Below, in pieces: positions 12,454-47,884 of a stretch of 64,000 nt of DNA. The position numbers were made by a program, and so were the translations under genes. Within the stretch, counting starts at the first letter, position 1; each line of letters begins with the position of its first letter. The stretch is from positions 29,319 to 93,318 of the forward strand of contig JAGZDZ010000002.1 in NCBI GenBank assembly GCA_018368535.1, given 5' to 3'. The stretch comes from Collinsella sp. (GTDB taxonomy: Bacteria > Actinomycetota > Coriobacteriia > Coriobacteriales > Coriobacteriaceae). The notes below the pieces were generated by a model, which was not told where the DNA came from, did not search any database, and was given only the letters and a program-made list of their open reading frames with translations.

Positions 12454-12467
12454 TCCCTTGCGCGATG

Positions 12468-12544
12468 GACCTGTAGCTCAGTTGGTTAGAGCGTCCGGCT
12501 GATAACCGGGAGGTCACAAGTTCGAATCTTGTCAGGTCCACCAC
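12468..12544 (+). tRNA. tRNA-Ile (anticodon GAT), CCA encoded
   Basis: Cloverleaf GGACCTG.../...CAGGTCC-A-CCA, anticodon loop CTGATAA. Confidence 0.9.
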
Positions 12545-12610
12545 TTTCTTTCGCAATAAACACCCCAGCGAGAGCCGAGTCGCCGCTGGGGTGTTTATTA
12601 CTGTCTCCGT

Positions 12611-12686
12611 GGGGGTTTAGCTCAGCTGGGAGAGCGCGGGCTTTGCAAGCCTGAGGTCAGGGGTTCGATCCCCCTAACCTCCACCA
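12611..12686 (+). tRNA. tRNA-Ala (anticodon TGC), CCA encoded
   Basis: Acceptor GGGGGTT/AACCTCC with G3-U70 pair, anticodon loop CTTTGCAA. Confidence 0.9.
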
Positions 12687-12690
12687 TGAT

Positions 12691-12767
12691 GGACCTGTAG
12701 CTCAGTTGGTTAGAGCGTCCGGCTGATAACCGGGAGGTCACAAGTTCGAATCTTGTCAGGTCCACCA
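12691..12767 (+). tRNA. tRNA-Ile (anticodon GAT), second identical copy
   Basis: 77/77 identical to 12468-12544. Confidence 0.9.
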
Positions 12768-18490: not shown

Positions 18491-18632
18491 GGAGGGATGT
18501 CCAAATTTTGAGCTTTGCTCAAAATTTATCCGGTCGGCTTACGCCGACCGCGCTGCGCTAAAAACGCGCCACTGGCGCGTTTTCTTTACGCTTTGCGCCC
18601 TGGCGGGTTCGAATCCCTCCTCCTCCGCCGTA
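18491..18632 (+). other. hairpin-rich tRNA-like element ending in a T-arm/acceptor identical (25 nt) to the 3' end of tRNA-Ser(CGA) but in inverted orientation; lies at the left prophage boundary
   Basis: 5' GGAGGGATG, then three perfect hairpins (18506-18528, 18532-18549, 18560-18584), then GGGTTCGAATCCCTCCTCCTCCGCC at 18600-18624. This is the reverse complement of 56245-56269. Confidence 0.35.
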
Positions 18633-18781: not shown

Positions 18782-20005
18782 CTATCCTATCACGAGCTGT
18801 TGGCCTGGGTAGATGCGATTGGGGTCTGCGATTCCGTTCGCTGCCGCGATTTCCTGATAGGTCGTGCCGAACTTCGCGGCGATGCCCGAGAGGGTGTCGC
18901 CGCTCTGCACCGTGTACGTGTGCTTGGTCGATACCGTGCCGCCGATCGGGATTGACAGGCGCTGCCCGGTGTAGATGAGGTTCGGGTTTTGGATTCCGTT
19001 CGCCGCCACGATGGCATCGACGGTCACACCATAGTGCGCCGCGATGGCCGACAGCGTGTCGCCTGCTACCACGGTGTATACCGTGCTGTCTCCCGAACCT
19101 CCACCGTTCACGACGGCGCGGACCTCTTCGGCGCGGCCGCAGATGTCGAGCACGGTCGAACGCAGGGGGTCGTTTCCGTACACGCCCTCCCATACCTCGT
19201 CGGCGAGCTCGTCGGCCGACGCATCGTGGATGTGGTTGATCATGTTCTGGACTTCATCGTACCGCGAGCCGCAGTAGTCCCGGCGAGCCTGGTCGTTGAG
19301 CCCGTGCTCGGCGATGTATGCGATGAGGTCGATGGTGCGGCCTGCGGGTGCCGTGGAGGTGTCAGGCTCGACAGGCTCCGGGGCGGGTTCGGGCTCCGCC
19401 CCGTCGGGGCACGCGTATGCCTGCCACGCGCTGCGGTCGCCGTAGAACTTGTTCAGGTCGAGCGGGCCGCCATAGCCGGCGATCCTGCCGTTGGAGGTGT
19501 ACTGGCGCATCGAGCAGGAGTAAGCGCCCTCGTTCCACGGGGAGTCCTGGTAACCCGTGGCGTCGTTGTCGGCATACTGGGCCACCCATGTCCCGGCGTT
19601 GAGCAGCTTCGCGGTGTCCCACGGGAACACGGCCTTCGAGGCGTAGATGAGCGGGATGATTCCTGTGCGCTCAACGATGCGGCGGCACACCGCGTCGAGG
19701 TAGGAGAGGTCCCCCCACGCCGCGTTCTGGTTCTGCTCCCAGTCCACGCAGAGCGTGCCCTTGCCCATCCAGTTCAGCACGCTGTCAACGAAGAAGTCGG
19801 CCTCCGCCTGCGCGTTGCCTCCCGCTACGTAGTGGTATACGCCGAAGAGCTTGCCGACGGAGCGCGCGAGCTCGACCTGCCTAGCGCAGTCTGGGGATGT
19901 GTAGGTAGTGCCCTGCGTCGCCTTGCAGATGGCGAAGTCGCAGGGAACGGCCGCGAGGTCGATGCCCGCCTGCCAGTTCGAGATGTCTATGCCGTTAAGC
20001 GCCAT
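18782..20005 (-). CDS. endolysin: GH25 muramidase with two C-terminal LysM domains
   Basis: GIDISNWQ GH25 start motif. Two LysM repeats (YTVVAGDTLSAIAAHYGVT and YTVQSGDTLSGIAAKFGTT). Confidence 0.85.
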   Translation of the reverse strand: MALNGIDISNWQAGIDLAAVPCDFAICKATQGTTYTSPDCARQVELARSVGKLFGVYHYVAGGNAQAEADFFVDSVLNWMGKGTLCVDWEQNQNAAWGDLSYLDAVCRRIVERTGIIPLIYASKAVFPWDTAKLLNAGTWVAQYADNDATGYQDSPWNEGAYSCSMRQYTSNGRIAGYGGPLDLNKFYGDRSAWQAYACPDGAEPEPAPEPVEPDTSTAPAGRTIDLIAYIAEHGLNDQARRDYCGSRYDEVQNMINHIHDASADELADEVWEGVYGNDPLRSTVLDICGRAEEVRAVVNGGGSGDSTVYTVVAGDTLSAIAAHYGVTVDAIVAANGIQNPNLIYTGQRLSIPIGGTVSTKHTYTVQSGDTLSGIAAKFGTTYQEIAAANGIADPNRIYPGQQLVIG

Positions 20006-21467: not shown

Positions 21468-22184
21468 CTACTCCGCCAGTTCCCACCCGGCTGGGTAGGA
21501 ATCCGGCGACCACGTGTTTCCGTCTATCTTCGATGTGTAGATGGGACCGGATTCGTCAGGGTAATGCACTTGGTCTCCCGTGTTGTACGCATCGTGCGCT
21601 CCGGTCGGCTGCTGCCAGACGGGGATGCTGTCGCCGGCGAGCGTGATCTTCGTGTACAGGCTCTCGGTCCCGGCTCCCGGCTTCCACTGCTCCTGCGATG
21701 TGTGCGCCTGTGCAACGCGATAGATGTCGCCGTCGTACGAGAGCAGTTCGCCTTGGATGTAGCTCTTCCCGATCTCGAAGGGCGGGATGAGGCTCGAAAC
21801 GCTGATGACCTGCTCGTCTGTCAGGTTGATCGCCATGGTCTGGATGGAGAGCGTCGCGGCCGTGCGAAGCTGCGCGAGCTGCGGCGCTGCGGCGCTGAAT
21901 GTCTTGGCGATGGTCTCCAACGCCTTGATGCGCTCGTCCTGCGGGGTCTCCGCTGCTTCCGCCTCGTCCCACAGCTCATCGAAGGAAGCCTCCGCCTCCT
22001 CCTGCGTGATGGCCTTGACGAGATGCACCTCGTCGGCGACCCACTGCTCGCGCTGCTCGCCGGAGGACTCGTCCTCGATCGTCTCCTTGGTGATGTTCTT
22101 GCGGAGCCAAACGTCCGCCTGCCCGTCTGGGCGCTGCTCGATTTTAACGGCGTCGAGCGGTGTCGCCGAAACTGTTTCCTGCAT
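21468..22184 (-). CDS. hypothetical phage protein with C-terminal CBM5/12-like carbohydrate-binding module
   Basis: C-terminal WQQPTGAHDAYNTGDQVHYPDESGPIYTSKIDGNTWSPDSYPAGWEL matches the W...Y..GD.V.Y.G.Y...N.W.P pattern. Confidence 0.45.
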   Translation of the reverse strand: MQETVSATPLDAVKIEQRPDGQADVWLRKNITKETIEDESSGEQREQWVADEVHLVKAITQEEAEASFDELWDEAEAAETPQDERIKALETIAKTFSAAAPQLAQLRTAATLSIQTMAINLTDEQVISVSSLIPPFEIGKSYIQGELLSYDGDIYRVAQAHTSQEQWKPGAGTESLYTKITLAGDSIPVWQQPTGAHDAYNTGDQVHYPDESGPIYTSKIDGNTWSPDSYPAGWELAE

Positions 22185-23235
22185 GCGCGCTCCTCGATAC
22201 GTATCGCCTTGCGGCTCGCATCGTAGCGTGCATGTCGTTTCTCGCGATGAGGTCGTCGCAGTCCGCGTGCTTGAAGTAGCCCATGTAGCTCGTGACGCGG
22301 CGCGCCCTGCGCAGGCACGGCTTCCTGTCGAACCTCCGGAACGCGCGCATGCCGCGCAGGAACGTGCCGGCGCGCACCTCGACGTGCGACGGCCTCACGA
22401 CGTAGCCCGCCATGTCGATGGGCTCGTCCTCTCCGACGCGGCATATCTTCCACGGCTTGAGCTCAAGGTGCAGCTCCTCGCGCATGTACTTCTCAAGGGA
22501 GCGCGCCGCAGCCTTGAGGTCGCGCTTGTCGTTGGACATCAGAAGCACATCGTCCATGTACCAGAGCTGATGCGCAACCAGCGCCCGTTTCTTTCCACGC
22601 CTTTCCTTGTGCAGGCTTTCGACGTGGTGGTATGCGAACGATAGGACGAGCTGTTCGGCGCGGAGCGAGAAGTAGCTCCCGATTTCAAGGCCGCCGCCCG
22701 TGTAGGTGGCGAGCAGGGACTCGATGCAGTAGAGAACGTCAGCCGACGCGACGTACTTGCGGAAGATTCCGAGAACGATGCCGTGCTCGGTCGAGGGGTA
22801 GCACTTCCGAACGTCCATTTTGACAAAGAAGCGCGGACCCCCCCCTGTCACCCATCTGCGGATGGTGCGCATGGTGAAGGTAGCGCCCTTGCCCTTGACG
22901 CTCGATGCCTGGTAGTAGCCGACCCTCGCGTTGAGGAAGTCGGCGCAGCAGTGTACCACGACGTAATCGACCAGCTGCTGCTTGACCGACGAGACACCGA
23001 TAGTGCGGACTTTGCCGTTCGTCGGCTCGATGTGGTCGTAGCGATGGATGGGCTCGAACTTGAGACGCCTCTCCGCGATCTCGCGGGTCACCTCGTCTAT
23101 GAGGTTGTCCAGGCTCCCGTACTCGTGGGCGATGCGCCACGCGTTCTTCTTGCCGGCAGGAGCCTCGCGCCATTCGTGATACGCCTCCTCCACGATGGCG
23201 CGGTCTATCGTGAGGCCCCTGCAATACGTCTTCAT
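22144..23235 (-). CDS. diversity-generating retroelement (DGR) reverse transcriptase
   Basis: RT motifs including catalytic YMDD (HQLWYMDDVLLM). Length 363 aa. Lies immediately 3' of the TR/VR repeat pair. Confidence 0.8.
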   Translation of the reverse strand: MKTYCRGLTIDRAIVEEAYHEWREAPAGKKNAWRIAHEYGSLDNLIDEVTREIAERRLKFEPIHRYDHIEPTNGKVRTIGVSSVKQQLVDYVVVHCCADFLNARVGYYQASSVKGKGATFTMRTIRRWVTGGGPRFFVKMDVRKCYPSTEHGIVLGIFRKYVASADVLYCIESLLATYTGGGLEIGSYFSLRAEQLVLSFAYHHVESLHKERRGKKRALVAHQLWYMDDVLLMSNDKRDLKAAARSLEKYMREELHLELKPWKICRVGEDEPIDMAGYVVRPSHVEVRAGTFLRGMRAFRRFDRKPCLRRARRVTSYMGYFKHADCDDLIARNDMHATMRAARRYVSRSAHAGNSFGDTARRR

Positions 23236-23393
23236 TCCGACCGTGTACCTCTCTGGTTGCCGTCCGAGCGTTCGCTTGTGCTACCAGCCCAGTGGTCGTG
23301 GCCATTTTCGTCGGTTGACGAGGCATGCCCGCTGCCGTCCGCGAGCGGAGGGCGCGGGTAGACGCGGCGTAATGAGAGCGAGGCGCATGTCAA

Positions 23394-23504
23394 CCAGATT
23401 GGCGCGACCCGATGTTCCACCTGGCGTTCGACAGGGCGTTGTTGCCGTTGACGTACCACAAGCCCGCATTCGAGCCGTTGTTCAAGTTGCCCAGAGCGTG
23501 GAAC
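23394..23504 (-). repeat. DGR template repeat (TR), 111 nt
   Basis: 100/111 identical to VR. All 11 mismatches are A in TR on the coding (minus) strand. 8 of them lie in TR AAC/AAT codon triplets. Confidence 0.8.
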
Positions 23505-23558
23505 AGAAGAACATCGGGAGCCGTCGCCGCGAATCCCTGGGCGTGATTATACCCTTTA

Positions 23559-23579
23559 AGAGGGGGCTTCGCCCCCTCT
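23559..23579 (-). promoter_or_regulatory. GC-rich stem-loop (AGAGGGGGC-ttc-GCCCCCTCT) 15 nt downstream of the DGR target stop, between VR and TR
   Basis: Perfect 9-bp GC stem. Position matches the hairpin found 3' of VR in characterised DGRs. Confidence 0.55.
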
Positions 23580-23593
23580 CGCCTTGCGGCGAT

Positions 23594-25135
23594 TCACCCC
23601 CTTGAGCGACCAGTGCCAGAGAGGCGCGACCCGATGCTCCACCGGGCGTACGACAGGGCGCTGCTGCCGCTGACGTACCACAAGCCCGCATCCGAGCCGA
23701 TGATCAAGTTGCCCAGAGCGTGGAACTCTCGCTCCGCGTTGGTCGTCTGGGCGTGCGTGTACGTGCCGTCGCACATGCCGGTCGTGGAGGACGCACCCGT
23801 GCCCGTTCCGACGAGCATGCCCTCCGCGTTCGAGAGCCGCGTCGGGTACTTCCAGCCCTCCGACGCGGCGGTGGGGAGGTCAACACCGCTGTCCACGTAG
23901 TCGGAGCTGATGCTCGACGCCTCCTTCTTGGTGTCGTGGAGCACCATGACGTTGCATGCGGAGCCGTCGTACTTGAGGGCGACGCCGCTCATGACCTCGT
24001 ACATGCCCATGGCGGTCTCGACGCCCTGCAGAACGAACGGCTCCTTGCCGTTGGTGCGGGAGGTCGGGGAGCCGTCGCCTTGAACGCCGTCGCAGCATCC
24101 GGTCGGCCACGGTGCGGTGATGACGTAGTTGTTCACCGCGGTGGTCGCGGCTCGGTCGAGCACGATCTTGTCGTTGTTCGAGTCGTAGCTCTCGATGCGC
24201 TTGATGACTCCGTAGTCCAGCACGTCGTGGGCGGCCGCGTTGCCTCGGTCGGTGTTCTGCGTTCCGATCATGACGGCGCTTCCGACCAGGTACCCCGCGC
24301 TTTTCGCAACGATGACGTAGCTCTGGTTGCTTGCGGCGACGGTCACGGGCTTGATGATGTTGTAGCTCGTGCAGCCTTGGAGCACGCTTTGCGAGTTCTT
24401 TGTCGCGTACTTCATCAGGAACATGACCTTGAGGTACCAGTCGTCCGCGATGGTGCGCCCGCTGTAGCCTGTGGTCGCGGTCTTGCAGATGGTGATGAGC
24501 GAGTTGTGCGATACGTCGCGCGTGCGCGGCTGCGCTCCCGAAACGCTCGCAGCGTTGCCCCCGTAGGTCGAGAGGGCGTACTTCGCGTAGAGCATGCAAG
24601 GGCGCAGGCTTCCGTCTGGCAACATGGCTCCGGGCTGCGGGGAGAATCCCGGGAGCTGCGTATCGGAGATTGAGATGACGGTGTACGCTCCGTCATCGTC
24701 GTCCGCGATCTTCCAGAAGAGCACGGGGGCGAGCACCCATACGTTGCCGTTGCCTCCGGTCCTCGCGAACATTCCGTCCCCGCTCATGGCCGTGACGTGC
24801 GGAACGCCGTCGGCGTCAACGGTCGCGTTCACGTCGATGTGGAAGAATGGCGCGAGCGCAGGATACGGGTCGATGGACGCAGCGGAGTTCGTTCCTGGGG
24901 TTGGCACCGCAACGCCGGCGTTCGCGTCAGCCTTCACGCATGCTACCGCGCTGCCGGTCGGCACCTTGATGGAGTAGATGCGTCCGTCCCTCATGGAGCG
25001 AAGCCACTTGTCGATTCCGACGTACTCGCCGGACTCGTCGTTGTAGGTGAGCAGCGAGCCTCGCGCCATCGCCTCAAGCGCGGATGCGATGCGCTGCCCT
25101 GTCTCGTCGCTCATGATGTGCGTCTTGCTTGCCAT
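23594..25135 (-). CDS. DGR target protein: phage tail fibre/receptor-binding candidate with C-terminal variable region
   Basis: 513 aa in the tail module. C-terminal ...LIIGSDAGLWYVSGSSALSYARWSIGSRLS is encoded by the VR. Confidence 0.75.
   Translation of the reverse strand: MASKTHIMSDETGQRIASALEAMARGSLLTYNDESGEYVGIDKWLRSMRDGRIYSIKVPTGSAVACVKADANAGVAVPTPGTNSAASIDPYPALAPFFHIDVNATVDADGVPHVTAMSGDGMFARTGGNGNVWVLAPVLFWKIADDDDGAYTVISISDTQLPGFSPQPGAMLPDGSLRPCMLYAKYALSTYGGNAASVSGAQPRTRDVSHNSLITICKTATTGYSGRTIADDWYLKVMFLMKYATKNSQSVLQGCTSYNIIKPVTVAASNQSYVIVAKSAGYLVGSAVMIGTQNTDRGNAAAHDVLDYGVIKRIESYDSNNDKIVLDRAATTAVNNYVITAPWPTGCCDGVQGDGSPTSRTNGKEPFVLQGVETAMGMYEVMSGVALKYDGSACNVMVLHDTKKEASSISSDYVDSGVDLPTAASEGWKYPTRLSNAEGMLVGTGTGASSTTGMCDGTYTHAQTTNAEREFHALGNLIIGSDAGLWYVSGSSALSYARWSIGSRLSGTGRSRG
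23616..23726 (-). repeat. DGR variable repeat (VR), covering the last ~37 codons of the target gene
   Basis: Matches the TR alignment. The VR ends 19 nt upstream of the target stop codon. Confidence 0.8.
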
Positions 25136-25138
25136 GTT

Positions 25139-26050
25139 CTAGTCCTCTCCTTGGTCGGTTAGCGTCAGGTAGCTGACATCTCCAACGGTCTCGTATTCCA
25201 GGAAGATGGTCTTGTCTGTAGAAACCATCCCTGCTGCGGCTCTCGCCTCTTCCGCTGCCTCGGCAGCGTCATCCGCCGCCATGCTCGCCGATGCCGCTGC
25301 CGTGTTTGCCGTGCCGGCTGCCGTGTTTGCGGCACCTGCCGCAGTATTAGCGGCCCCTGCTGCGGTGTTCGCCGCGTTCGCCGCATCGGTTGCATCGTCT
25401 GCCGCGCTCAAGGCATCGGATGCTGCTCCGTTCGCGCTGCTCGCCGCATCCTCCGCGGCGTCTGCCGCCGAGTTGGCGCTATTTGCGGCCTGCGTCGCCG
25501 CATCCTTCGCGGCGTTGACTGAATCAGCAGCATCGCGCGCCTCTTCCGCCGCATCGGTCGCATCATCCGCCGCGCTGTTCGCCTTGCCTGCGGCTGTGTT
25601 CGCGGAGCTGGTCGCGGTCTGCATTTGCGACTTGATGCTGTTGAGCTGCGAGATTAGAGCTTCCACCTCGGAGATGTAGGCATCTGTCGGAGCATCCGCC
25701 TGCGACTCCGCATCGGGGAGCACGTTTATCCATATGTCGGGCGTTGTCTCGACCTTTCCCCCGACGGTCACGCGGAAGTAGGCGGTCTTGATGACGCCCT
25801 TGGAGGTCAGGAACTTGGGGTCGAGCGTCACGGTCACAGTGCTTCCCGATACGCTTGCCGACTGGTCGGCGTATGTGCGGTCGGGCTTGAGCGCGATGAA
25901 CCGCGCGTTCGTAGCCCCGGTGAGCGCGGACCCGTCTTTCAGCAGGCTCGCCTTGATGATTGTTCCGCTGTCGCCAGTTCGCGCGGTTATTATCTCCGCT
26001 GCGAGTGCGGCAGACTTGTCAACGTCGAGCGTCAGCTCATGCGTTGCCAT
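25139..26050 (-). CDS. phage tail/baseplate-associated protein with Ala-rich coiled-coil repeats
   Basis: N-terminal beta-rich domain, then AANTAAGAANTAAG repeats. Position between Tal and the DGR target. Confidence 0.5.
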   Translation of the reverse strand: MATHELTLDVDKSAALAAEIITARTGDSGTIIKASLLKDGSALTGATNARFIALKPDRTYADQSASVSGSTVTVTLDPKFLTSKGVIKTAYFRVTVGGKVETTPDIWINVLPDAESQADAPTDAYISEVEALISQLNSIKSQMQTATSSANTAAGKANSAADDATDAAEEARDAADSVNAAKDAATQAANSANSAADAAEDAASSANGAASDALSAADDATDAANAANTAAGAANTAAGAANTAAGTANTAAASASMAADDAAEAAEEARAAAGMVSTDKTIFLEYETVGDVSYLTLTDQGED

Positions 26051-26273: not shown

Positions 26274-28838
26274 TTACGTTGGCCAACTTGTGCATATACC
26301 GTTTATGAAATTGACGGTCCCGTACCGCCAGTTGATTCCGCCATCGTCGCGTCCTGTAATAGAAAGCACGACGCTTCTCGACCCGGTTATCCCGTATGTG
26401 CCACCAGAGTTCGGGTCAGTACCTACCGCGAACTTCGGAGCCCTGATGCGAGCGGTTCCCGTGCTGTCGATGTCGAGACGGCTGTCGTCTATGTAAACCT
26501 GATCGTCGTCGCTGTTGCGCAGAGCGACGTATCCGACGCCTCCTCCGCTGCTGCCAGAAGCCCGCATGTAAAGTTCTTGAGGTGGTTGGCTCATGTATCC
26601 CTTGTATACGGGTGGGTGCAGCCACAGCTGTCGGTAGTACCTGTTTGCGTGGAGGAAGCCGTAGTCTAGAGTCGACATCCCGCAGCCGTCCGTCGAGGAG
26701 GGGTCAGTGCTGTCGACCGCATGAACCGCTTCGATCTCGAAGTAGTTGGTGCTCCCCTTGATGAACGACGCTCCGGAGTTTCCGCTCACGGTTGTCCCGG
26801 TAGTGATGTAGTTGGACGAAGATGTGCCAACCATGTTGCATCGGAACATCGCCGTCCCATCGCTCATGATGACTGTGCCCGCGATGATCCGGTTTCCGCT
26901 GTCTCGAATCTGGAAGCCATTCGTGGCGTTGATGTATACCTTGTTTCCGTTGCTGTCCGTTATGAGGATGTTTCCGCTGCGCAGATATACCGTTCCGCTA
27001 TCGAGGTCGAGGTAGCTGTTGTCTCCGATGAGGACCCTTCCCACCAGCCTGTTCGCGACGATTCCGTCTCCGTCGATGGCGGTCTGGAACACCCAGTTCC
27101 CTGCGGAGTTCTTGCTGTTGGCCACGCCGATGACGCCGCCGCCTATCTTCACGCACTTGGTTGCGTTGGGTGGCTTGAGGTCGTAGACCATGATGCCCTG
27201 GCCGGGCTCCTCGTACACCCAACCGCCGGTCGTGTTGAGCTCGGAGTTGAGCATGTCGACGATCTGATCTCGGATGTCGTCCGGAACCTTCGCGAGGTTC
27301 GCCTCAAGGGCATCGATGGCGTTCGTCGCCGCATCGAGCGATGCATCGAGGGCGTCTGTTATGGATTCAAGGTACTGCTTGTTCGCCTCGTCTATGGCTT
27401 TAAGCGTTTCCTCGCTCTGCTCGATCTTCGTGTTGGTGTAGAGCTTCAAGACCTCCTCAAGGTCGAGCATGCCATCGTCGGCATACTTCTTGAGCAGGTC
27501 TTCGAGGGTGCTGTCACCGTTGGCGGCGTACTCCTTGAGAGCGGTGTCGAGCTCGTCGGCTATGTCGTCGGTGTAGTCTTTGGCCTCCTGCTGCGCGCTG
27601 TCGGCCTTGCCGCTCGCGAACGCCTCAAGGTACGCCTGCGTTTGCGTGAGGTTCGCTCCCCACATGCTCGAAGCTGCGGAGTTTGATGCGTTCACTGCGT
27701 TGGTGATGGTCTGCTTGAGGTTTGAGGTCGCCTTCGAGATGTTCGACTTCTGCGCGGCGAGTATTTCCCCGACCGTCTGGAAGTTCCCGATGGTGTACGT
27801 CGCCTTGCCATCAACGAGCTGGTCTTCCTCCACCTTGGTGATGCGCGCCTGCACGCGCAGGGGAGGGTCGTACACCTTGTCGATGATGGTGACGGTATCG
27901 CCCTCGTCGGCTCCCTCGAAGCCCTCGCCCGCCCTCGCGAGCGATATGGCGTCGACCTCGTAGGAGACCGTCGGCGTGCATCGGCTCTTGAGCTCTTCCT
28001 TCGTGAGGGTAAGCAGCTCGCTCTGGTCCTCGCAGTCCTCGAACTCCACGTCGCCGAAGACGTGCGCCTTGCCGCCGTTCCCGTCGGGCCGTCCCCAGCG
28101 GGCGAGGGCGTCGGCGTCTCCGACCCAGTTCTGCCCGCCGTTGACATCTCCGAAGGTGAGCTTGCGCTCGTAACCTCCCGTGAGGTTGCCTTCTTCGTCT
28201 GTGTTCTCCGGTGCCTTGCCGTACCCGTAGAGGGCGGTGCATACGTTGCCCTCGTCAACCTCGCGCGTGACGCTCACTAGGTCCTTGGTGTACGTGAAAC
28301 GCTTGCCGGTGTCTGTGCCAACGCGCTCTCGCAGATGCACGCGTCTGGCGGTGACCTTGCTGCCCGAGACCGCGATCTCGAACTCAAGCTCTCCGCCCCA
28401 CGTGTCTGCGACATCGTGGATGGCGGCCCATGCGTTCGTGTGGTAGAAGTTCGTGCCGTTCTGCCCGAGGTTGTCAACCGTTCCGACGGTCCATCGGCTC
28501 GCGGACAGGGCGGAGGACGTGGCGACGCTCGCCGTCGTGTCCAGCGGTCTCTTGTCTTCGAGGTAGTCTCCCGACAGCTCGACCTGCGCCGAACTCGGGC
28601 AGTAGTAGGTGTAGACGATTCCCGCGCTCGCGCGCTCCTCGGTCACGCCGTCCACGATGTTCTCGCGCCAGCGTCCCTTCTTGTCCTGCCATACGATTCG
28701 GTCGCCCTTCTCAAGCACTGCGAGACACGTGATTGACAGGCTGTTCTCGCCGTTCACCTCGCGCGTGTCGATGCACTCGAATAGCGTCTTGATGGGGCCC
28801 TTGAAGACCTCCCATCTGTCTGTGACCCAAAGCCTCAT
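26274..28838 (-). CDS. tail-associated protein (Tal/prophage-tail endopeptidase family-like), 854 aa
   Basis: Canonical position after Dit. The N-terminal domain resembles the prophage tail N-terminal domain. Confidence 0.6.
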   Translation of the reverse strand: MRLWVTDRWEVFKGPIKTLFECIDTREVNGENSLSITCLAVLEKGDRIVWQDKKGRWRENIVDGVTEERASAGIVYTYYCPSSAQVELSGDYLEDKRPLDTTASVATSSALSASRWTVGTVDNLGQNGTNFYHTNAWAAIHDVADTWGGELEFEIAVSGSKVTARRVHLRERVGTDTGKRFTYTKDLVSVTREVDEGNVCTALYGYGKAPENTDEEGNLTGGYERKLTFGDVNGGQNWVGDADALARWGRPDGNGGKAHVFGDVEFEDCEDQSELLTLTKEELKSRCTPTVSYEVDAISLARAGEGFEGADEGDTVTIIDKVYDPPLRVQARITKVEEDQLVDGKATYTIGNFQTVGEILAAQKSNISKATSNLKQTITNAVNASNSAASSMWGANLTQTQAYLEAFASGKADSAQQEAKDYTDDIADELDTALKEYAANGDSTLEDLLKKYADDGMLDLEEVLKLYTNTKIEQSEETLKAIDEANKQYLESITDALDASLDAATNAIDALEANLAKVPDDIRDQIVDMLNSELNTTGGWVYEEPGQGIMVYDLKPPNATKCVKIGGGVIGVANSKNSAGNWVFQTAIDGDGIVANRLVGRVLIGDNSYLDLDSGTVYLRSGNILITDSNGNKVYINATNGFQIRDSGNRIIAGTVIMSDGTAMFRCNMVGTSSSNYITTGTTVSGNSGASFIKGSTNYFEIEAVHAVDSTDPSSTDGCGMSTLDYGFLHANRYYRQLWLHPPVYKGYMSQPPQELYMRASGSSGGGVGYVALRNSDDDQVYIDDSRLDIDSTGTARIRAPKFAVGTDPNSGGTYGITGSRSVVLSITGRDDGGINWRYGTVNFINGICTSWPT

Positions 28839-29551
28839 CAGCCTACGTGCCTCTCATCCCACTCGATGGTTCCCGAACCGCTGGACAGCCGCAGGCTGTT
28901 GCGCCCAGGCTGCAGCGCGAAGTAGTCGCTGTCGTATGTGACCGCCTGGTTCTGCCCGTTGACGGTCGTCTGCTCCTCGCCCATGTCGATGATCACGGCG
29001 GAGGAAGAGGCGAGCGATGCGTTGATCTGGACGAACTCACCCGTGTCCATGTTCGTGAGCTTGAGGTAGCTCACGGAGCCGCCGGGCTTGCACGTGATGA
29101 CCGGCCTCGTCTCGTAGGAGCCTCCCACTGCCAGCGAGGTGTTGTATCCGACGCTGCCCTTGTGGTGGGCTCCGTATGCGATGGGGTCGTACGCCGTGAA
29201 CTCAAGCTCTGCGGAGCCGGTGTGCCATAGGTTGTCCAGTTCCTTCGGCGAGGTCAGCACCGCCATGTAGTAGATGCCCAGATGGCGCTCGTCATCGAGG
29301 TAGAGCGGGGCCTCTTTGAGGCATAGCAGCCTCGCCGCCATCGTGCGGCGAAGCACCGCCATGTCGTCGGAAGGACGCGCCCGCCACTCTGCGCGCACCG
29401 TGATGGTGAGCGGTTTCATCTTCGCCCGCATGAACCGCTCGCCGGGTCGGTACGGCACGTTCTGCGTCTCGACATCGTATTCGGGGAGCAGGGAGCGCGT
29501 GATGAGCTTTGTCTTGAACCAGGGGGAGAAGTCGAATCCGTTGTATATCAC
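28838..29551 (-). CDS. distal tail protein (Dit, Sipho_tail family)
   Basis: 237 aa, position between the tape measure protein and Tal. Confidence 0.6.
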   Translation of the reverse strand: MIYNGFDFSPWFKTKLITRSLLPEYDVETQNVPYRPGERFMRAKMKPLTITVRAEWRARPSDDMAVLRRTMAARLLCLKEAPLYLDDERHLGIYYMAVLTSPKELDNLWHTGSAELEFTAYDPIAYGAHHKGSVGYNTSLAVGGSYETRPVITCKPGGSVSYLKLTNMDTGEFVQINASLASSSAVIIDMGEEQTTVNGQNQAVTYDSDYFALQPGRNSLRLSSGSGTIEWDERHVG

Positions 29552-31956
29552 GCGAATGCCCCCTGTCTCATCTCGGCGCGCTTGATCTCCTTTGCGATTT
29601 CGCGCGACAGCTTCTTGATGTCCGCCTCCTCGCGCACGGTCGCGTACACGTTGATTGTCACGTTGGTGTCGCCGCCGCGCCCGATGCCGCCCATCCGCTC
29701 AAGCTGCTCCATGATGCCCTCGGCGAGTGGTGCCGCGCCGCGCTTGTTGAACGGAACGACGCCCTCTGGCCCTGACTCGCCGACGCCGATGACGCTCGGG
29801 CCGTTGAAAACGCCGCCCTTCGCGTACCAGCTGATGGATAGGGTGGCGGGGTTTGGAATGTTCCCGAGCAGCGGGACGTTAATCAGGTCGTAGTGGATGT
29901 GCGGGAGCGGGATGTGCGGCCACGAGATGCGGAAGTTGAAGAATCCCTTGATTGCGCTGATTACGCCGGACACCACGTTCTTCGCGCCGTTCATGGCGTT
30001 GCTCACGGCGGACTCGATGCCGGAGAAGATGCCCTGAACAACGGAGAGTGCGGTGTTAAGGCCGTTCTGCACAGTGGAAACCACTCCGTTGATGGCACCG
30101 CCCACAACGCTCACGACTACATTCCATGCGCCCGATATGATGCCTGTAATGCCGGACATGATTCCCTGGATTCCGGCCTCCATCTGCGAGAAGTCGCCAG
30201 TCACGATTCCGTTGATGAGACCGAGCACCGTCTGGAAGATGCCCTGGATGAGCGACCACGCGCCTTGTATGATCTGCGCTATACCATTCATCACGCCAGT
30301 GATGGTCTGCAGGATGACCTGGAACGTGTTCCCCACATTCTGCAGGAGCTGCTGCAGGATAGGTACCGCCACGGCGATGATGAACTGGAATCCCGCGCTC
30401 ACGATGGGCATGATGACGTTCATGGCTTGCGTAACTGCGTTGGAGATTGCCGCCCACGCCTGCTCGACGTACGGCTGCAGTTGCGCTATGACCGCCTGGA
30501 TGGTTCCCCAGATGGCGTTCCACGCCTCGGTCACTGCCGTGCGGAAGCCTTCGTTCGTGCTCCACAGGTAAACGATGGCCGCAGTTAGCCCGGCCAACAC
30601 GCCCAGCACTATGCCCACCGGACCAGTTAGCGCGGCGAGCGCGCCTCCGAACAGGCCGGCGGCACCGCCTGCTCCGCTCAAGGCGGCAGTTATGGCGGGG
30701 ATGACCGCCACGAGGTTCCCCGCTATCGACAGCACGGGACCTATTGAGGCCAGTATTCCGGCGATGGCGAGAACGGCCATCTGGCCGCCCTCTCCGATGC
30801 CCGCGAACCACTCGCCGAACGCCTTGACGACCCCTGCGACGTTTGTGGCGATGTTGAGCAGCGGCTCTCCCAGGGGCTCGATGGCACCTTGCAGCTCGCG
30901 CATGGCCGACTGCATCTTGCCCGCGAAGCTGTCTGATGCCGCGTCTGCGGCGGCTCCCGCCGCTCCGGCAACGTCCCCGTACTTGTTCTCAACTCCGGCG
31001 AGGCTCGTGATCATGCCCATGGCGTTGTCCTCGCCGAGGCTCGACCACAAGGTCGATGCTAGGTTCGCCTTGTCGTATCCGTCGGGCATCTTCGCGAGCT
31101 CGCCAAGCACCGCCTCGAAAACCTGCTGGCCGGTAGCCCCTCCGGTCTTCCACGCCTCGAACAACTGCTGCGTCGATTCGGAGAAGCGTCCTATGCTCTC
31201 GTCCATGCGCCCGTCAACAAGCGATGTTTGGAACTCGTTGAGGAAGTCGTTCACCTTGTCGAGGTTGTACGCGCCGTTCTCGGTTCCCGCCTTGAGTATG
31301 GAGAAGTAATCCTGCGCGGAGAAGCCCATCTGCGCGAATCGCGGTCCGTACTCCGCGAGGTTGTCTCCCAGCTCGTCGCTGTAGTTGAGGCCGTCCTGCG
31401 CGCCGGCGACGAACAGGTCCATGGCGTCCTGCGCGGACATGCCGAAGCCGTCCATGAGGGCGTTCACGCCGCGAACGCTCTCTCCAACGTCCATTCCGAG
31501 GGTGTCGGAGAGCGTGAGTGCCGCCTGCGTCACATATTCGAGGTCTTGATCGTTGAGGTCACCGAGGTTCTGGCGAACCGTGATGAGGGCGTCGGACACG
31601 AGGTCTAGGGACTGGCCGAAGCCGTTCTCGTAGATTCCCTCTCCGACATCGCCCAGATGTTCTGCCTCCTCGGAGGTTAGTCCGAGCGCGGACTGGATGC
31701 GGGCGGTCGCCTGCTCGTAGCTCGACGCCGTGGTGAACGCGGCTGTGCCCGCCGCGATTATCGGCGCTGTGAGCCCGACGGTCGCCGCCGTTCCCGCCGA
31801 CTTGAGGGAGCCAGACAGCTTCTGCGCTGCCTTGTCTCCCTCCGTGATTCCCTTCCAGCTAACGCCGTTCAGGCTGCTGTTTACGTCTTTTACGCCCTTC
31901 TCGACCTTGCTTGTGTCGAGTATGGCTTCGATGACTACGGAGCCGTCCATGCTCAC
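29548..31956 (-). CDS. tail tape measure protein
   Basis: 802 aa, Gly/Ala-rich hydrophobic repeats in the central third, located after the chaperone pair. Confidence 0.8.
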   Translation of the reverse strand: MSMDGSVVIEAILDTSKVEKGVKDVNSSLNGVSWKGITEGDKAAQKLSGSLKSAGTAATVGLTAPIIAAGTAAFTTASSYEQATARIQSALGLTSEEAEHLGDVGEGIYENGFGQSLDLVSDALITVRQNLGDLNDQDLEYVTQAALTLSDTLGMDVGESVRGVNALMDGFGMSAQDAMDLFVAGAQDGLNYSDELGDNLAEYGPRFAQMGFSAQDYFSILKAGTENGAYNLDKVNDFLNEFQTSLVDGRMDESIGRFSESTQQLFEAWKTGGATGQQVFEAVLGELAKMPDGYDKANLASTLWSSLGEDNAMGMITSLAGVENKYGDVAGAAGAAADAASDSFAGKMQSAMRELQGAIEPLGEPLLNIATNVAGVVKAFGEWFAGIGEGGQMAVLAIAGILASIGPVLSIAGNLVAVIPAITAALSGAGGAAGLFGGALAALTGPVGIVLGVLAGLTAAIVYLWSTNEGFRTAVTEAWNAIWGTIQAVIAQLQPYVEQAWAAISNAVTQAMNVIMPIVSAGFQFIIAVAVPILQQLLQNVGNTFQVILQTITGVMNGIAQIIQGAWSLIQGIFQTVLGLINGIVTGDFSQMEAGIQGIMSGITGIISGAWNVVVSVVGGAINGVVSTVQNGLNTALSVVQGIFSGIESAVSNAMNGAKNVVSGVISAIKGFFNFRISWPHIPLPHIHYDLINVPLLGNIPNPATLSISWYAKGGVFNGPSVIGVGESGPEGVVPFNKRGAAPLAEGIMEQLERMGGIGRGGDTNVTINVYATVREEADIKKLSREIAKEIKRAEMRQGAFA

Positions 31957-37203: not shown

Positions 37204-39339
37204 CTAGAATCCTTTCATCATGTTCACGAACACATCATAAGTTTTCGGAAGGTACCGCTTCAACGTCTCAAGTGCCTGCGGGTTCGCCATGGAGCACTCG
37301 AAGAAGTGGGCGAAGGTCTCTGTGGCAAGCGACTGCGCTCCCCACCTTCCCTTCCAGTAGGACTTTCGGTGGGCGGGAAGTGCGTAGTCGCAGCACGTTC
37401 CGCTTGTCGCCCCGTGTATGATGTCCGATAGCCCGCCTATGAGTTCAGGGGTGGAGCGATACAGCGCGATGATCTCGCGGGTCAGATGCTCCTTCGCCTC
37501 GTTGACGCTGCCGTAGCCCATCGTCTTCTTGATGGTGCGCAGCATCGCCTGCACCTCTTTCTTCGCGGTCGCTCCCAGGCCGGCGGCTTCCGACGCGTAC
37601 TGCATGGCCTGCCCGTTCCTGTGGTCGATATAGTGCCCGTATTCGTGGAAGAACGTCTGGTATGGTGCTTTGTCCTTTCGGTAAGCGAAGCCCCTCGCGG
37701 TGTCATCCATGTTCAGCGTTATGCCGTGCGTTCTTGGACTGTAGTACGCCTGGCCTCTCGATGCCGTCGTGCTGTCTAGCTTCAAGTCTGCGAGAGCTCC
37801 GTCGAACGCTCTCTTCACATCGGCATTTTTGCACGAGTCGGCTATCGTAGCTATCTCCTTCGCGCTTGCGTTTGCTATCCCTTTTCCCTGCATCACCTTT
37901 GCAGATGCCGTTGCACTGCGCGGGGCCTTCTTCTTTGCGGTCTTCGCATTTCCCTTCAATCCTGCTATTGCGCGCTTGAATATGCTCTGCTGGTTCGCCT
38001 TGCTCAAGTTCCGCCAGTTCTTAGGGTCTATTCCTTGGCTCTTCAACTCCGCAGACAGGGCCTTCTGCGCTGCCGACTTCGATATGCCTCGCGCCTTGAG
38101 CATCTGCTTGACTCCATCGCCGTCCATGAACTCCTTCATGGTGCGGCGGCTCGCGTCTGTCTTGCGCACCTTCGGCATGTCGCCCGCCCACTCGCGCCTC
38201 GGGCTGCGCTGCAGCACCGGGGCGATTCCTTTTCCGTTCGCCTCGTCGATGTAGCGTCTCATGCCCTCCTGCTGCCCGCGCAGCTTGGCCTTGAGGCGTT
38301 CGACCTCCGCGATGTTTGCGAGGCTCGCGTCCTTGTCCGCTATGATCTGCGCTCCTGACAGCTCGCGCTTGGTTTTCCTGATTTCGCGCTCGCGTCTGCG
38401 CTGCCCCTGCGTGAGACTGTATATCTCGTCGTTGTCCAGTCCGCTCGGGTGGCTCGGCTCCGGCTCGTATTTTCGAGGCGTGCCTGGGAGCCACGGTCCG
38501 AAGCTGTGCCGGCAGTTCGCTCCGCCCAACCCGTCTACCTTGCCGTAGCCTGTCTCCGCGTAGAAGTCGCGGTAGCGCACGCCGTCGATGGTCACGTCTC
38601 CGTTGAGCGAGTAGACGCGACCCTGCCACCGCGCGTGGCTAGGGCGCGCACCTCCATGGCTCGACACCTCCACGAGGCGGATTCCCGCCTGCCCGCACAC
38701 GTCGAGCGTGCGTCGCATGCCGTCCTGCGCTATCTGCGTGCGCACATGACGGCGAACGGCAACGTCGATATTGTTGGTCACTGTTTGCTGCCCTGTGGTC
38801 GGGTCTCGGTAGGTAACGGTGGACACGCCATCGCGCATCATGCGGCGCACCGCCTGGTGTATGGCCCTCTCCGCTGTCTCCGCTCCCGTGTTCACCTTGG
38901 TGACTGCCTCCGCCACGCACCGGTTCCATAGGTCGAGCGCGCCCTGTGTCATGTCAACGTTGTCGCGTTCGAGTATCGCCGCTATGCCTCTGACCGTGAG
39001 CTCGACCTGCCTCGGCATGGTCTCGGCGACCGCGCCCGCCGCAGCGGCCCGCGCGCCTGCCGCAGCCACATCGGAGGCGTCGCTCTTTCCCATGGCTTCC
39101 TCAACGGTCATGCGCACGGCCTCGTTCACCTCGCTGCGGTGGCTTTCGATGAACTCCATGAGGCGAGGGGCGGCGGACTGCGCGAGGAGGTTCACGGCGG
39201 TCGCGCCGCGCTGCCCTAGCTCTTCTATGTCCTGGTCGAGCAGGAGGCGGCACAGGTACGCGAGCATGTCGGCCTCTATCTCGCCGTACACGGCTCCCAC
39301 CATGTCGCCTGCCCTGTCGAGGTATTCCGGGTCGAGCAT
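37204..39339 (-). CDS. MuF/SPP1 gp7-like head morphogenesis protein with C-terminal HExxH (zincin-like) extension
   Basis: ATG at 39339, 2 nt after the portal stop. The central region has MuF-like features. The C-terminal ~250 aa contain FFHEYGHYIDH. The first ~400 aa of the listed 1111-aa ORF are an out-of-frame artefact over the portal gene. Confidence 0.6.
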   Translation of the reverse strand: MLDPEYLDRAGDMVGAVYGEIEADMLAYLCRLLLDQDIEELGQRGATAVNLLAQSAAPRLMEFIESHRSEVNEAVRMTVEEAMGKSDASDVAAAGARAAAAGAVAETMPRQVELTVRGIAAILERDNVDMTQGALDLWNRCVAEAVTKVNTGAETAERAIHQAVRRMMRDGVSTVTYRDPTTGQQTVTNNIDVAVRRHVRTQIAQDGMRRTLDVCGQAGIRLVEVSSHGGARPSHARWQGRVYSLNGDVTIDGVRYRDFYAETGYGKVDGLGGANCRHSFGPWLPGTPRKYEPEPSHPSGLDNDEIYSLTQGQRRREREIRKTKRELSGAQIIADKDASLANIAEVERLKAKLRGQQEGMRRYIDEANGKGIAPVLQRSPRREWAGDMPKVRKTDASRRTMKEFMDGDGVKQMLKARGISKSAAQKALSAELKSQGIDPKNWRNLSKANQQSIFKRAIAGLKGNAKTAKKKAPRSATASAKVMQGKGIANASAKEIATIADSCKNADVKRAFDGALADLKLDSTTASRGQAYYSPRTHGITLNMDDTARGFAYRKDKAPYQTFFHEYGHYIDHRNGQAMQYASEAAGLGATAKKEVQAMLRTIKKTMGYGSVNEAKEHLTREIIALYRSTPELIGGLSDIIHGATSGTCCDYALPAHRKSYWKGRWGAQSLATETFAHFFECSMANPQALETLKRYLPKTYDVFVNMMKGF

Positions 39340-39341
39340 GG

Positions 39342-40748
39342 CTAGAACCCAACGTCGAGGACGGTCTGCTCGGGCATGAGGAGCTGCGCCTCCTCCTCGC
39401 TCTTGCCGTAGAAGCGAACGAGGTACATCCACTTCGGCACGACTCCCGCCGCGATCTCGGAGAGCATCTGCGTCTTCTCCGCCTGCGTGTCTGTGATGAT
39501 GGAGTCGTCCCACACGATGGTCACGGGCTCGAAGCCCTCCGCTATGCTCGCGCCGCAGTTGGCGCGGGCGCACTCGCAGAGCGCCGTGAGAAGCCTGCCC
39601 AGCTCCTTGCCCAGCGCGTTCTCGTGGTTGCGGATGTTGCGCATGAGGGCGGAGTTGTCCGCGCTCACCTCGGTCGCCGTCTTGAGGCCGCCCGACTTGT
39701 CGGGCTTGAAGTACTGCGAGCCGAAGCCGCACTCGTCGCCCAGGGCGGCGCATGCGTCTGCGTACACCTCGTGGATGGCGGAGGTTCGCATCTGCGGCGC
39801 GAAGGCGTAGGGCTTGCCCTCCTCGCCGATGGCGGATGCCGTGAGGCGGAACAGTCGCTGCTCCCGGTTGCCGAACGGCACGGGGCGCTTCTTGCCTTCC
39901 TCGTCGGTCTCCACGTCGATCATGGTATCCGGCACCATGAGCACGGCGCGCAGCAGGTCGGTCTCGTCGTAGAGCGCCGTCCACGCGGTGTCGAGCATGC
40001 GCATGGTGTCGATGGCGTCGTGGAACACACTCACGCCGTAGGGGGAGGTGTCCTGCACGGTGTTGTCGATGGCGGGGGAGAGCAGGCAGAAGGTGCGGAG
40101 AGCGCACCCCGTATCGAAGTCCTCGATGATGCCCAGCCCCTCGGATGCCACGGGCTTGCCGTCGCGCCACACCTTGGTGACGATGTGGTACGTCCCGCTC
40201 TCCGCGTCCATGATGTGCATCTGCAGCTGGACGGCCTGCTTGCCCTTGATGGTGACTCGTGTGCAGAACGCGCACTCCGTGGTGCCGTCCTCGTCCCACG
40301 TGAGCGGGATGACCATCTTCGCGTCGTATCGGCGCACCCTGATGGTCGTGCCTTCGTCTCGCACGTCGAACCACAGCGCCATGGCACCGGTGCCCATGGC
40401 GAAGGCGCGCTCGATGCCGCGCTGGAACAGGGCGTAGAGCCCCGTGTCCTCGCAGTAGTCGCGCACCCACTCGTTGGCGTCCGCGCTCTCGCTCTGCGCC
40501 TGCATCTCGTTGGCGATGAGCGACGCCCACTCGCGGCACACGCGGCGGGCGGGTCGCAGCGAGAGCTTCTGGCGCTCGTGGCTGCGGCCGTCAACGCCCA
40601 GGTACTTCTCCTTGTAGAACGGGTGCGTCGCTGTGTACCACTGGTACCACTCCGCGATGTGCGTGCTCATATCGGGGGGCATGGCGTAGCCGCGCGAGGT
40701 GATCTCCTCGCTCACGTACGCCGGCACCTCGAACTGGTTGTCTGCCAT
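39342..40748 (-). CDS. portal protein (SPP1 gp6-like)
   Basis: 468 aa, located between the terminase and the MuF-like gene. Confidence 0.75.
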   Translation of the reverse strand: MADNQFEVPAYVSEEITSRGYAMPPDMSTHIAEWYQWYTATHPFYKEKYLGVDGRSHERQKLSLRPARRVCREWASLIANEMQAQSESADANEWVRDYCEDTGLYALFQRGIERAFAMGTGAMALWFDVRDEGTTIRVRRYDAKMVIPLTWDEDGTTECAFCTRVTIKGKQAVQLQMHIMDAESGTYHIVTKVWRDGKPVASEGLGIIEDFDTGCALRTFCLLSPAIDNTVQDTSPYGVSVFHDAIDTMRMLDTAWTALYDETDLLRAVLMVPDTMIDVETDEEGKKRPVPFGNREQRLFRLTASAIGEEGKPYAFAPQMRTSAIHEVYADACAALGDECGFGSQYFKPDKSGGLKTATEVSADNSALMRNIRNHENALGKELGRLLTALCECARANCGASIAEGFEPVTIVWDDSIITDTQAEKTQMLSEIAAGVVPKWMYLVRFYGKSEEEAQLLMPEQTVLDVGF

Positions 40749-46994: not shown

Positions 46995-47531
46995 CTAGAA
47001 CGGGATGTCTTCGTCATACAGGTCGTAGGAAGGCTGAATTTGCGCCTGCTGCGGAGCGTATACGGGCTGCTGCGGAGCAGGTGCCTGCGCAACGCGCTGC
47101 GGTGCTGCCGGAGCTTGCTGCGGTGCGTATGCCGGCTGCGGGGCCTGCTGCGGAGCGTAGACGGGCTTCGTGGCGTACTGTTGGTAGCCCTGCTGCTGGT
47201 ACTGCTTCGGCTGCAGAGGCCGGATGACGCCGATCTCGCGCACCTTGAGGTACGCCTTTGAGCGGTTCTGACCTGTCTGCTTGTCCTGCCAGCTGTCGTA
47301 GGCGAGGCTTCCCCACAGGAGGAGCAGAGCGCCCTTGACTATGTTGCGGGCTTTGTCATCGTTCTGCCCGTTGTGCCAGTACTCGCAGTCGAAGAACTGG
47401 GGCGTGTTTGATTTGGTTTCGCGGTTGTAGTTCGGGCTGTTGACAGTGAAGCGCGTCACAAGCTGTCCGCTCTGCGTAGAGCTGGTCTCGACGTTCTTGG
47501 TCACGTAGCCGTCTAGGGTGAAGTCTTTCAC
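46995..47531 (-). CDS. ssb: phage single-stranded DNA-binding protein
   Basis: GTG start 6 nt after AAGGAGG. OB-fold N-terminus. The Q/P-rich tail ends in the acidic DLYDEDIPF. Confidence 0.7.
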   Translation of the reverse strand: MKDFTLDGYVTKNVETSSTQSGQLVTRFTVNSPNYNRETKSNTPQFFDCEYWHNGQNDDKARNIVKGALLLLWGSLAYDSWQDKQTGQNRSKAYLKVREIGVIRPLQPKQYQQQGYQQYATKPVYAPQQAPQPAYAPQQAPAAPQRVAQAPAPQQPVYAPQQAQIQPSYDLYDEDIPF

Positions 47532-47881
47532 AGGTATCCTCCTTGGGTGACGTTCCCGCTGTTCCATATGCGGGTTATCTGCGCGTCCACCATGCGGATG
47601 CGCAGCTTGTAGACGTTGATGGCCTCTTGGCTCGCCTTGTAGATTGCCTCGGAGCAGTCGCGCAGCTTCTTGAGTTCCGCTATGTCCTCGCGCCCACGGC
47701 ACAAGTCGCTCGTGATGGTGACCGGCGTGCCCTTCCGGCGCTCGTCGAGGATGGCGAGGCGGAGCGCCTTGCGATACTCCGCCTCGTTCTCGGCGTACTG
47801 GCAGCCGCTGGTCTTGCAGACCTCAAGCTCCGCCATGAGCTGGTCTGTCAGCTCGTCGAGCTGTTCGTACAGCTCCTGCAT
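47528..47881 (-). CDS. hypothetical coiled-coil phage protein
   Basis: 117 aa, in an operon with ssb and ERF. Confidence 0.4.
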   Translation of the reverse strand: MQELYEQLDELTDQLMAELEVCKTSGCQYAENEAEYRKALRLAILDERRKGTPVTITSDLCRGREDIAELKKLRDCSEAIYKASQEAINVYKLRIRMVDAQITRIWNSGNVTQGGYL

Positions 47882-47884
47882 GGC

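Follow-up and report, generated by a model that had tools for sequence, protein, structure and literature searches.

The 64,000-nucleotide (nt) stretch of Collinsella sp. contig JAGZDZ010000002.1 analyzed here (the window) very probably contains an active or recently active diversity-generating retroelement (DGR), located in a siphovirus-type prophage and having an accessory-free architecture composed of a target gene, a template repeat (TR) and a reverse transcriptase (RT) gene. An original prediction, made from the letters of the DNA, had proposed that the RT, the TR and a variable repeat (VR) in this region form a DGR. This interpretation is supported by the match of the RT, the adenine-only pattern of the mismatches between the repeats, the fold of the target protein and the variation observed in relatives. 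The cassette measures about 1.6 kb from the TR to the RT stop codon. Its features, given in window positions, are the following:

23594-25135, minus strand: DGR target gene, encoding a 513-amino acid (aa) tail-module protein with a predicted C-terminal C-type lectin (CLec)/formylglycine-generating enzyme (FGE)-type fold that contains the VR
23616-23726, minus strand: VR, residues 470-507 of the target, 100/111 identical to the TR
23616-23632, minus strand: 3' end of the VR, a directionality element resembling the initiation of mutagenic homing (IMH) element, with GGGTCGCGCC (23623-23632), the fixed TC (23621-23622) and then TCTGG
23579-23592, minus strand: small hairpin TCGCC-GCAA-GGCGA with a GNRA-type loop, right after the target stop codon
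23559-23579, minus strand: GC-rich hairpin or cruciform AGAGGGGGC-GAA-GCCCCCTCT, -17.3 kcal/mol as RNA
23546-23551, minus strand: TATAAT, candidate -10 box for a putative TR-spacer-RT transcript
23394-23504, minus strand: TR, the non-coding copy, with 24 adenines, 22 of them mutable, and 9 AAY codons in the VR frame
23236-23393, minus strand: TR-RT spacer, a conserved structured RNA, in which the match of 23263-23362 to Rfam RT-19 (RF03073) falls short of the gathering score
22144-23235, minus strand: DGR RT, 363 aa, with YMDD and the motif IGSYFS-LRAE-Q

A repeat finder detected a two-copy direct repeat of 111 nt (23394-23504 and 23616-23726) with 90% identity, in agreement with the repeats reported in the original prediction, which are identical at 100 of the 111 positions. 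Read on the minus strand, the TR has an A at all 11 mismatched positions, where the VR has G, T or C. Given that the TR contains 24 A among its 111 nt, the chance that 11 of 11 mismatches fall on A is 5.3e-9 (hypergeometric), and the adenine-only pattern claimed beforehand is thus borne out. Eight of the 11 mismatches are located at position 1 or 2 of AAC or AAT codons, which they convert into Ile, Ile, Asp, Ser, Ser, Ser, Tyr and Ser codons; a script comparison confirmed that these eight mismatches and the resulting VR residues had been correctly described. The other three correspond to one silent change (AGG to CGG) and to two changes that convert CAA into CTC. By calculation, 1.8e13 DNA variants and 7.4e12 protein variants are possible at the 22 mutable adenines, none of them with a new stop codon.

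The VR had been claimed to form the end of the target. It is indeed located near the 3' end of the gene (residues 470-507 of 513), but not at its extreme end: six residues follow the VR (GTGRSRG), and 20 nt separate the VR end from the target stop codon. The distance to the TR is 111 nt from the end of the VR homology and about 90 nt from the target stop codon. On its other side the TR had been described as directly abutting the RT, which turned out to be incorrect, because the TR end (23394) is followed by 158 nt of structured spacer before the RT start codon is reached (23235).

The last two mismatches, AA in the TR versus TC in the VR (23621-23622), are next to the GC-rich sequence GGGTCGCGCC. 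In a comparison of close loci, TC was present in 8 of 8 VRs and AA in 7 of 7 TRs. Moreover, residue 505 is Leu in all full-length VR-bearing homologues; Gln at this position was limited to three assemblies that end in the TR or are aberrant (P0129, P0134 and P0140), and P0123 is frameshifted within the VR. Because TC is present in every VR and residue 505 is Leu in the full-length homologues, we read AA/TC as a fixed TR/VR difference that would mark the direction of transfer, analogous to IMH/IMH* of Bordetella, and not as a product of stochastic mutagenesis. The mutagenic mismatches are then nine of the 11.

The target protein is identical to NCBI MBS5438357.1, from a Collinsella sp. metagenome-assembled genome (MAG), and belongs to a cluster of 376 sequences at 90% identity, of which 14 members were sampled. 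Nine of these 14 differ from the window target at 6-12 residues, all of them at TR-adenine codons (472, 476, 478, 479, 482, 487, 489, 491, 492, 496, 498 and 500), and the substitutions fit A-to-N changes. The presence of 6-12 different VR residues at adenine codons in otherwise identical targets points to recent turnover.

RT-based scans yielded 48 viral loci and six genome loci, the latter from Collinsella aerofaciens, uncultured Collinsella, Candidatus Coprousia, Olsenella and Bifidobacterium imperatoris. In about 45 of these loci, whose RTs are between 35% and 93% identical to that of the window, a TR/VR pair of 104-112 nt is located just upstream of the RT gene. These loci share the target-TR-RT layout, and their 5-18 TR/VR mismatches are almost exclusively located at TR adenines. 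In seven close loci, 21 of the 22 mutable adenines were seen changed, and each VR departs from the TR of its own locus at adenines alone, apart from a single T-to-G change (L007); save for this change, the confinement of VR variation to TR-adenine sites that is expected of a DGR was observed across the relatives. The TR itself hardly varies between close relatives; its few non-adenine polymorphisms (positions 7, 9, 31, 36 and 43) are mirrored in the cognate VR, a pattern that we interpret as the signature of TR-to-VR information transfer. At the level of sequence, these comparisons demonstrate adenine-specific, TR-directed and recurrent rewriting of 13 codons in the predicted CLec-fold domain of a tail-module protein.

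We then consider the RT. The 363-aa minus-strand open reading frame (ORF), in which RT motifs including YMDD had been noticed originally, matches Pfam RVT_1 (E 1.3e-9) and, in PHROGs, phrog_1423 'Reverse transcriptase' (E 2e-49). It is intact, of full length and equal in length to its homologues. Its best match in the PDB is 8ub7_A (E 3.4e-11, 46.4 bits, residues 18-330). Counting along this alignment gives D138, I181 and Q187, which are the published residue numbers of the Bordetella phage DGR RT (bRT), and chain A of 8ub7 was therefore identified as bRT. Hence, the closest solved structure is the RT of the BPP-1 DGR, ahead of group II and retron-type RTs, which score 20.7 and 20.3 bits (E about 2e-3), 26 bits below 8ub7_A; this ranking agrees with the original prediction.

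The RT might instead belong to a group II intron, a retron or a defence system, with the repeats being an ordinary duplication, but this explanation can practically be dismissed. It would account for the weak generic matches of the RT to the NCBIfam group II maturase model and to the PADLOC models of defence RTs (DRT). However, the score with the maturase model (TIGR04416), 44.5 bits, stays below the cut-off of 300, Rfam scans of the window revealed no group II intron or retron RNA, and the bRT match outscores intron- and retron-type RTs by the margin given above. The recurrence of the adenine-only pattern in about 45 loci and a target having the fold of DGR variable proteins also speak against this explanation.

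DGR RTs are characterized by the signature motif [I/V/L]GxxxSQ instead of QGxxxSP (PMC7826257). The corresponding region here reads IGSYFSL, with the Ile, Gly and Ser in place, and HMMER aligns the Gln four residues later (IGSYFS-LRAE-QL here versus IGSLTS-QL in bRT). The IGSYFS-LRAE-Q variant is conserved in 115 homologues. Furthermore, RT homologues down to 35% identity all adjoin TR/VR pairs. These homologues, together with the best PDB match, argue that the RT is a member of the DGR clade.

No family was found for the target in Pfam and NCBIfam, and the protein was identified by structure prediction alone. The AlphaFold2 model, based on 92 homologues, has a pLDDT of 93.1 and a pTM of 0.91. 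Its best structural matches are the DGR variable proteins TaqVP, TvpA and Mtd, followed by FGE-type proteins, in line with the CLec/FGE fold that had been suggested for the target C-terminus, and the N-terminal part of the model matches phage tail proteins. According to the model, the VR lies in a CLec-type fold near the C-terminus of the target, which, judging from its position and fold, is presumably the receptor-binding protein or tip. TaqVP, the variable protein of a Thermus aquaticus prophage DGR (PDB 5vf4), shares only 11-15% sequence identity with the window target, which is 130 residues longer and has extra N-terminal beta domains resembling phage tail proteins.

Several observations weigh against the presence of an active or recently active DGR. 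Evidence of cDNA synthesis or current activity in this lysogen is only indirect, and the signature [I/V/L]GxxxSQ is not literally present in the RT, in which IGSYFS is followed by four residues before the Q. The receptor-binding role of the target is deduced from position and fold only. Avd was not found, although the one DGR studied biochemically cannot function without it. In addition, a near-identical MAG locus (L049) lacks the TR and others are of a VR/TR-fused type, so that some copies may be dead or misassembled. In the C. aerofaciens MAG locus L049 (5500-6003), whose RT is 99% identical to that of the window, the TR is wholly missing (junction GGCTCCCGAT/CTGGTTGACATG) and the VR is one codon short, which reflects either a real TR deletion that froze the VR or an assembly collapse. 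In L052 and L053, both from Olsenella MAGs, the VR-like 5' part of the target runs into the TR 3' end and the spacer, with a loss of 222 nt; proteins P0129, P0134 and P0247 (507 aa, ending in ...RQSG) are also of this fused type. These fusions may have arisen by recombination or, more likely, by collapse of the repeats in short-read assemblies.

The TR-less and fused loci, the failure to find Avd and the occurrence of the exact window VR protein on five contigs would all fit a fossil DGR, that is, a once-active cassette that retains historical TR/VR differences and in which mutagenesis has ceased in this lineage. We consider this very unlikely. The RT ORF is intact and of full length with its YMDD, the TR is conserved, and the 6-12 VR residues, all at adenine codons, that distinguish otherwise identical targets argue for recent turnover. 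Moreover, the loci with a missing or fused TR were assembled as MAGs from short reads, and such assemblies often collapse a repeat of 111 nt artefactually. The preferred interpretation thus remains that of an active or recently active DGR.

Avd is present in 74% of DGRs and is hence not universal. We screened about 38 prophage ORFs for the Avd-type Pfam family, and no match was found among them or in the cassette. In all relatives, including those with an RT identity of 35%, the VR-TR gap measures no more than 110-150 nt, and the TR-RT interval is taken up by the structured spacer; the cassette therefore has no room for an avd gene. In the window, where the gap is 111 nt, this geometry bears out the original statement that no Avd-like ORF lies between VR and TR. 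In the studied system, bRT is inactive without Avd (PMC6182149; bioRxiv 10.1101/2023.10.23.563531), and Avd proteins are so poorly conserved that a Pfam scan can miss them (PMC5758913). Both facts are compatible with a BPP-1-like mechanism in which an Avd-like or other partner is encoded elsewhere, on the host chromosome or in an unrecognized phage ORF, and in which the cassette is not self-sufficient. We regard this possibility as rather doubtful, given the short VR-TR gaps in all relatives and the lack of an Avd-type match among the prophage ORFs. In addition, 29% of the 372 DGRs analyzed by Wu et al. (2018) have no accessory gene (Architecture A), and their profile search gave no remote avd, which led them to suggest an Avd-independent mechanism (PMC5758913). 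As far as testable, that is, within the reach of the scans, the absence of Avd from the Collinsella DGR is real and corresponds to a known architecture.

The TR-RT spacer scores 41.2 bits (E 4e-7) against Rfam RT-19 (RF03073), which does not reach the gathering score of 78.3, and the Bifidobacterium-type spacers of loci L011 and L054 exceed it with 102 and 98 bits, respectively. With RT-19, the window copy has in common its position 5' of the RT gene and a two-helix core, and differs in scoring under the threshold. In a consensus structure of 23 distinct spacers, 97% of cells are paired versus 29-40% in slid-partner controls. Compensatory changes were found in 10 of the 20 base pairs; the sequences represent only about three clades, so the independent events are few. 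The covariation supports a shared secondary structure, and the spacer RNA is a divergent relative of RT-19. Of the RNAs described by Weinberg et al. (2017), only RT-10 was tied to a DGR, as the BPP-1 spacer, and RT-19 was given no function (PMC5737381). In the DGR described here, RT-19 is found at the place that RT-10 has in BPP-1.

Two other candidates in this region were rejected. Small ORFs overlapping the TR and the spacer (23232-23459 and 23281-23469) were considered as an accessory protein, but relatives contain 1- or 2-nt indels and RNA-type compensatory changes in them. A duplex between the TR 3' end and the spacer, similar to the template:primer helix of BPP-1, can be drawn in Collinsella-type loci, where UCUGGUUG pairs with CAACCAGA; this pairing is lost in Bifidobacterium-type loci and overlaps the RT ribosome-binding region, and we make no claim about it.

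We propose that the DGRs of a clade of actinobacterial prophages (Collinsella, Coprousia, Olsenella and Bifidobacterium) perform mutagenic retrohoming without any Avd, and that the RT with its four-residue motif insertion and the RT-19 spacer RNA do the positioning and priming job of Avd; we would give this proposal an even chance of being right. If true, it would define a minimal two-component DGR (RT plus RNA) and assign a function to Rfam RT-19.

The GC-rich hairpin at 23559-23579 has a stem of 9 bp, starts 37 nt after the end of the VR homology and is conserved in all relatives. Bifidobacterium-type loci contain GAGGGGGC-GAAA-GCCCCCTC at this place. In phage DGRs, a GC stem of 7-10 bp with a GRNA loop is located 4-34 bp after the VR, and is needed for homing of BPP-1 (PMC3240598). 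The Bifidobacterium-type hairpin appears to be exactly of this published type, and the window copy departs from it by its distance of 37 nt and its GAA loop. The first hairpin (23579-23592) is kept in relatives with different stems (TTGCCGC-GTGA-GCGGCAA in L005; loop GTGA in L001). Hence, an IMH-like 3' element and a downstream GC hairpin are present, which by analogy may function in homing. The TATAAT sequence at 23546-23551 is kept in Collinsella-type loci despite flanking indels. A scan of the region 23150-23700 with promoter and terminator consensus sequences revealed neither a full sigma-70 site nor a canonical terminator; therefore, TATAAT is only a lead to the presumed TR-RT promoter, and the GC hairpin does not qualify as a terminator of the canonical kind.

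These features are compatible with the following mechanism. The TR-spacer-RT region would be transcribed, and the RT would bind the RNA via the RT-19-like structured spacer, whose structure is backed by covariation and whose role in positioning and priming is assumed by analogy with Bordetella. The RT would then copy the TR into cDNA with misincorporation opposite adenines, as the adenine-only pattern indirectly suggests. As in the Bordetella system, this cDNA would replace the VR at the 3' end of the tail-protein gene, in a direction that may be set by the fixed AA/TC difference, the GC-rich element at the VR 3' end and the downstream GC-rich hairpins. The outcome would be a repertoire of as many as about 7e12 variants, generated at 13 surface codons of the CLec-fold domain, presumably the receptor-binding tip, which would allow the phage to track changes in the host surface.

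The Collinsella cassette has many features in common with the BPP-1 DGR (mtd-avd-TR-brt): a phage tail-protein target with a VR in a C-terminal CLec fold, a TR upstream of the RT followed by a structured spacer of about 140-160 nt, adenine-specific mutagenesis of an AAY-rich TR, and, at the VR 3' end, a GC-rich element with fixed TR/VR differences and a GC-rich hairpin downstream. In contrast to BPP-1, however, it lacks avd, with only about 90 nt between target stop codon and TR; its spacer is RT-19-like instead of RT-10; its RT motif is IGSYFS-LRAE-Q instead of IGSLTSQ; its hairpin has a GAA (or CGAAG) loop instead of a 4-nt GRNA loop; and its host, unlike that of BPP-1, is a Gram-positive actinobacterium. 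In its operation the element resembles the BPP-1 DGR, and it shows the features that define DGRs apart from the non-universal Avd and the literal SQ of the RT motif. The layout corresponds to Architecture A1 of Wu et al. 2018 (PMC5758913), with a target, a TR and an RT and no avd, HRDC or other accessory gene. The Avd-less Lineage 3A of the same study was reported only in Bacteroides and relatives (PMC5758913).

Eggerthella lenta prophage DGRs adjoin tail genes, and experimental VR change was obtained for DSM2243phi4 (PMC8778435). DGRs have been suspected in Bifidobacterium prophages (PMC8705816), and Roux et al. list DGRs for Bifidobacterium and Collinsella (bioRxiv 10.1101/2020.04.01.020958). 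The window cassette shares host group and tail-gene placement with these Coriobacteriia and Bifidobacterium prophage DGRs, and is homologous to the Bifidobacterium imperatoris locus L054 and to many IMG/VR loci. Most E. lenta clades are depicted as having a putative avd located between mtd and TR, whereas the family of the window cassette lacks it. The literature searched contained no account of this particular Collinsella prophage, and a blastn search of INPHARED phage records with the cassette gave no match. Architecture, fold, host group and tail-gene placement have all been reported already, and general knowledge of DGRs is left unchanged. What is added here is small: RT-19 RNA is linked to the spacer of a DGR, AA/TC is described as a fixed mark of directionality, and the motif insertion and the lack of Avd extend across the clade.

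Collinsella is an abundant actinobacterium of the gut. The cassette is a clean, well-populated example of hypervariation of phage host range in this genus, with hundreds of natural VR variants in public data. As a compact accessory-free DGR with a defined spacer RNA, it might serve in trials of targeted mutagenesis with a minimal system, and it may also be used to ask how DGRs function without Avd.

The surroundings of the cassette bear out the claim that the DGR is embedded in a prophage tail module. The neighbouring genes are, from 5' to 3':

29548-31956, minus strand: tape measure protein
28838-29551, minus strand: Dit
26274-28838, minus strand: Prophage_tail/Tal protein
25139-26050, minus strand: BppU_N tail protein, upstream neighbour of the target
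21468-22184, minus strand: CBM5/12 protein, 238 aa, 3' of the RT
between the CBM5/12 gene and the endolysin gene, minus strand: two small holin-like ORFs, then a C39-like peptidase
18782-20005, minus strand: GH25-LysM endolysin

The genes thus run on the same strand in the order tape measure, Dit, Tal, BppU_N, target, TR, RT, CBM5/12, holin-like ORFs, peptidase and endolysin, and the DGR cassette is located in a siphovirus tail module with the BppU_N tail protein gene on one side and lysis genes on the other. The prophage is about 38 kb in size (roughly 18.6-56.3 kb of the window) and also encodes terminase, portal, capsid, ERF, single-stranded DNA-binding protein (SSB), a cytosine methylase and, beside a tRNA-Ser gene, a large serine recombinase. 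A search of the whole window revealed no further VR copies.

The CBM5/12 gene (21468-22184) separates the DGR from the holin-like genes, and its start lies 41 nt ahead of the RT stop codon. The BppU_N protein (25139-26050) contains a long Ala-rich region encoded by degenerate 21-nt (7-codon) repeats, with a sub-threshold match to Pfam Alanine_zipper (18.2 bits versus a cut-off of 23.1); this region is probably a coiled-coil stalk that bears the variable protein. The prophage also encodes, at 46995-48499 on the minus strand, an ERF-family single-strand annealing protein and an SSB. That these could help the DGR cDNA anneal to its target is pure speculation.

As for the borders, the large serine recombinase gene (54809-56275, plus strand) overlaps tRNA-Ser(cga). 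Direct att repeats were not found, and the sole candidate is a 25-nt exact inverted match between the left prophage border (18605-18629) and the 3' end of tRNA-Ser(cga) (56245-56269), the orientation of which differs from that expected of a simple att duplication. Outside the prophage, a cluster of tRNA-Ile, tRNA-Ala and tRNA-Ile is present at 12467-12767, in which both tRNA-Ile(gat) copies are identical and near which an Rfam scan gave no rRNA match. Finally, the Phage_min_cap2 minor capsid protein 2 (37204-39342, minus strand) has a C-terminal extension of about 350 aa, which shows a faint match to the zincin-like MPTase-PolyVal domain.

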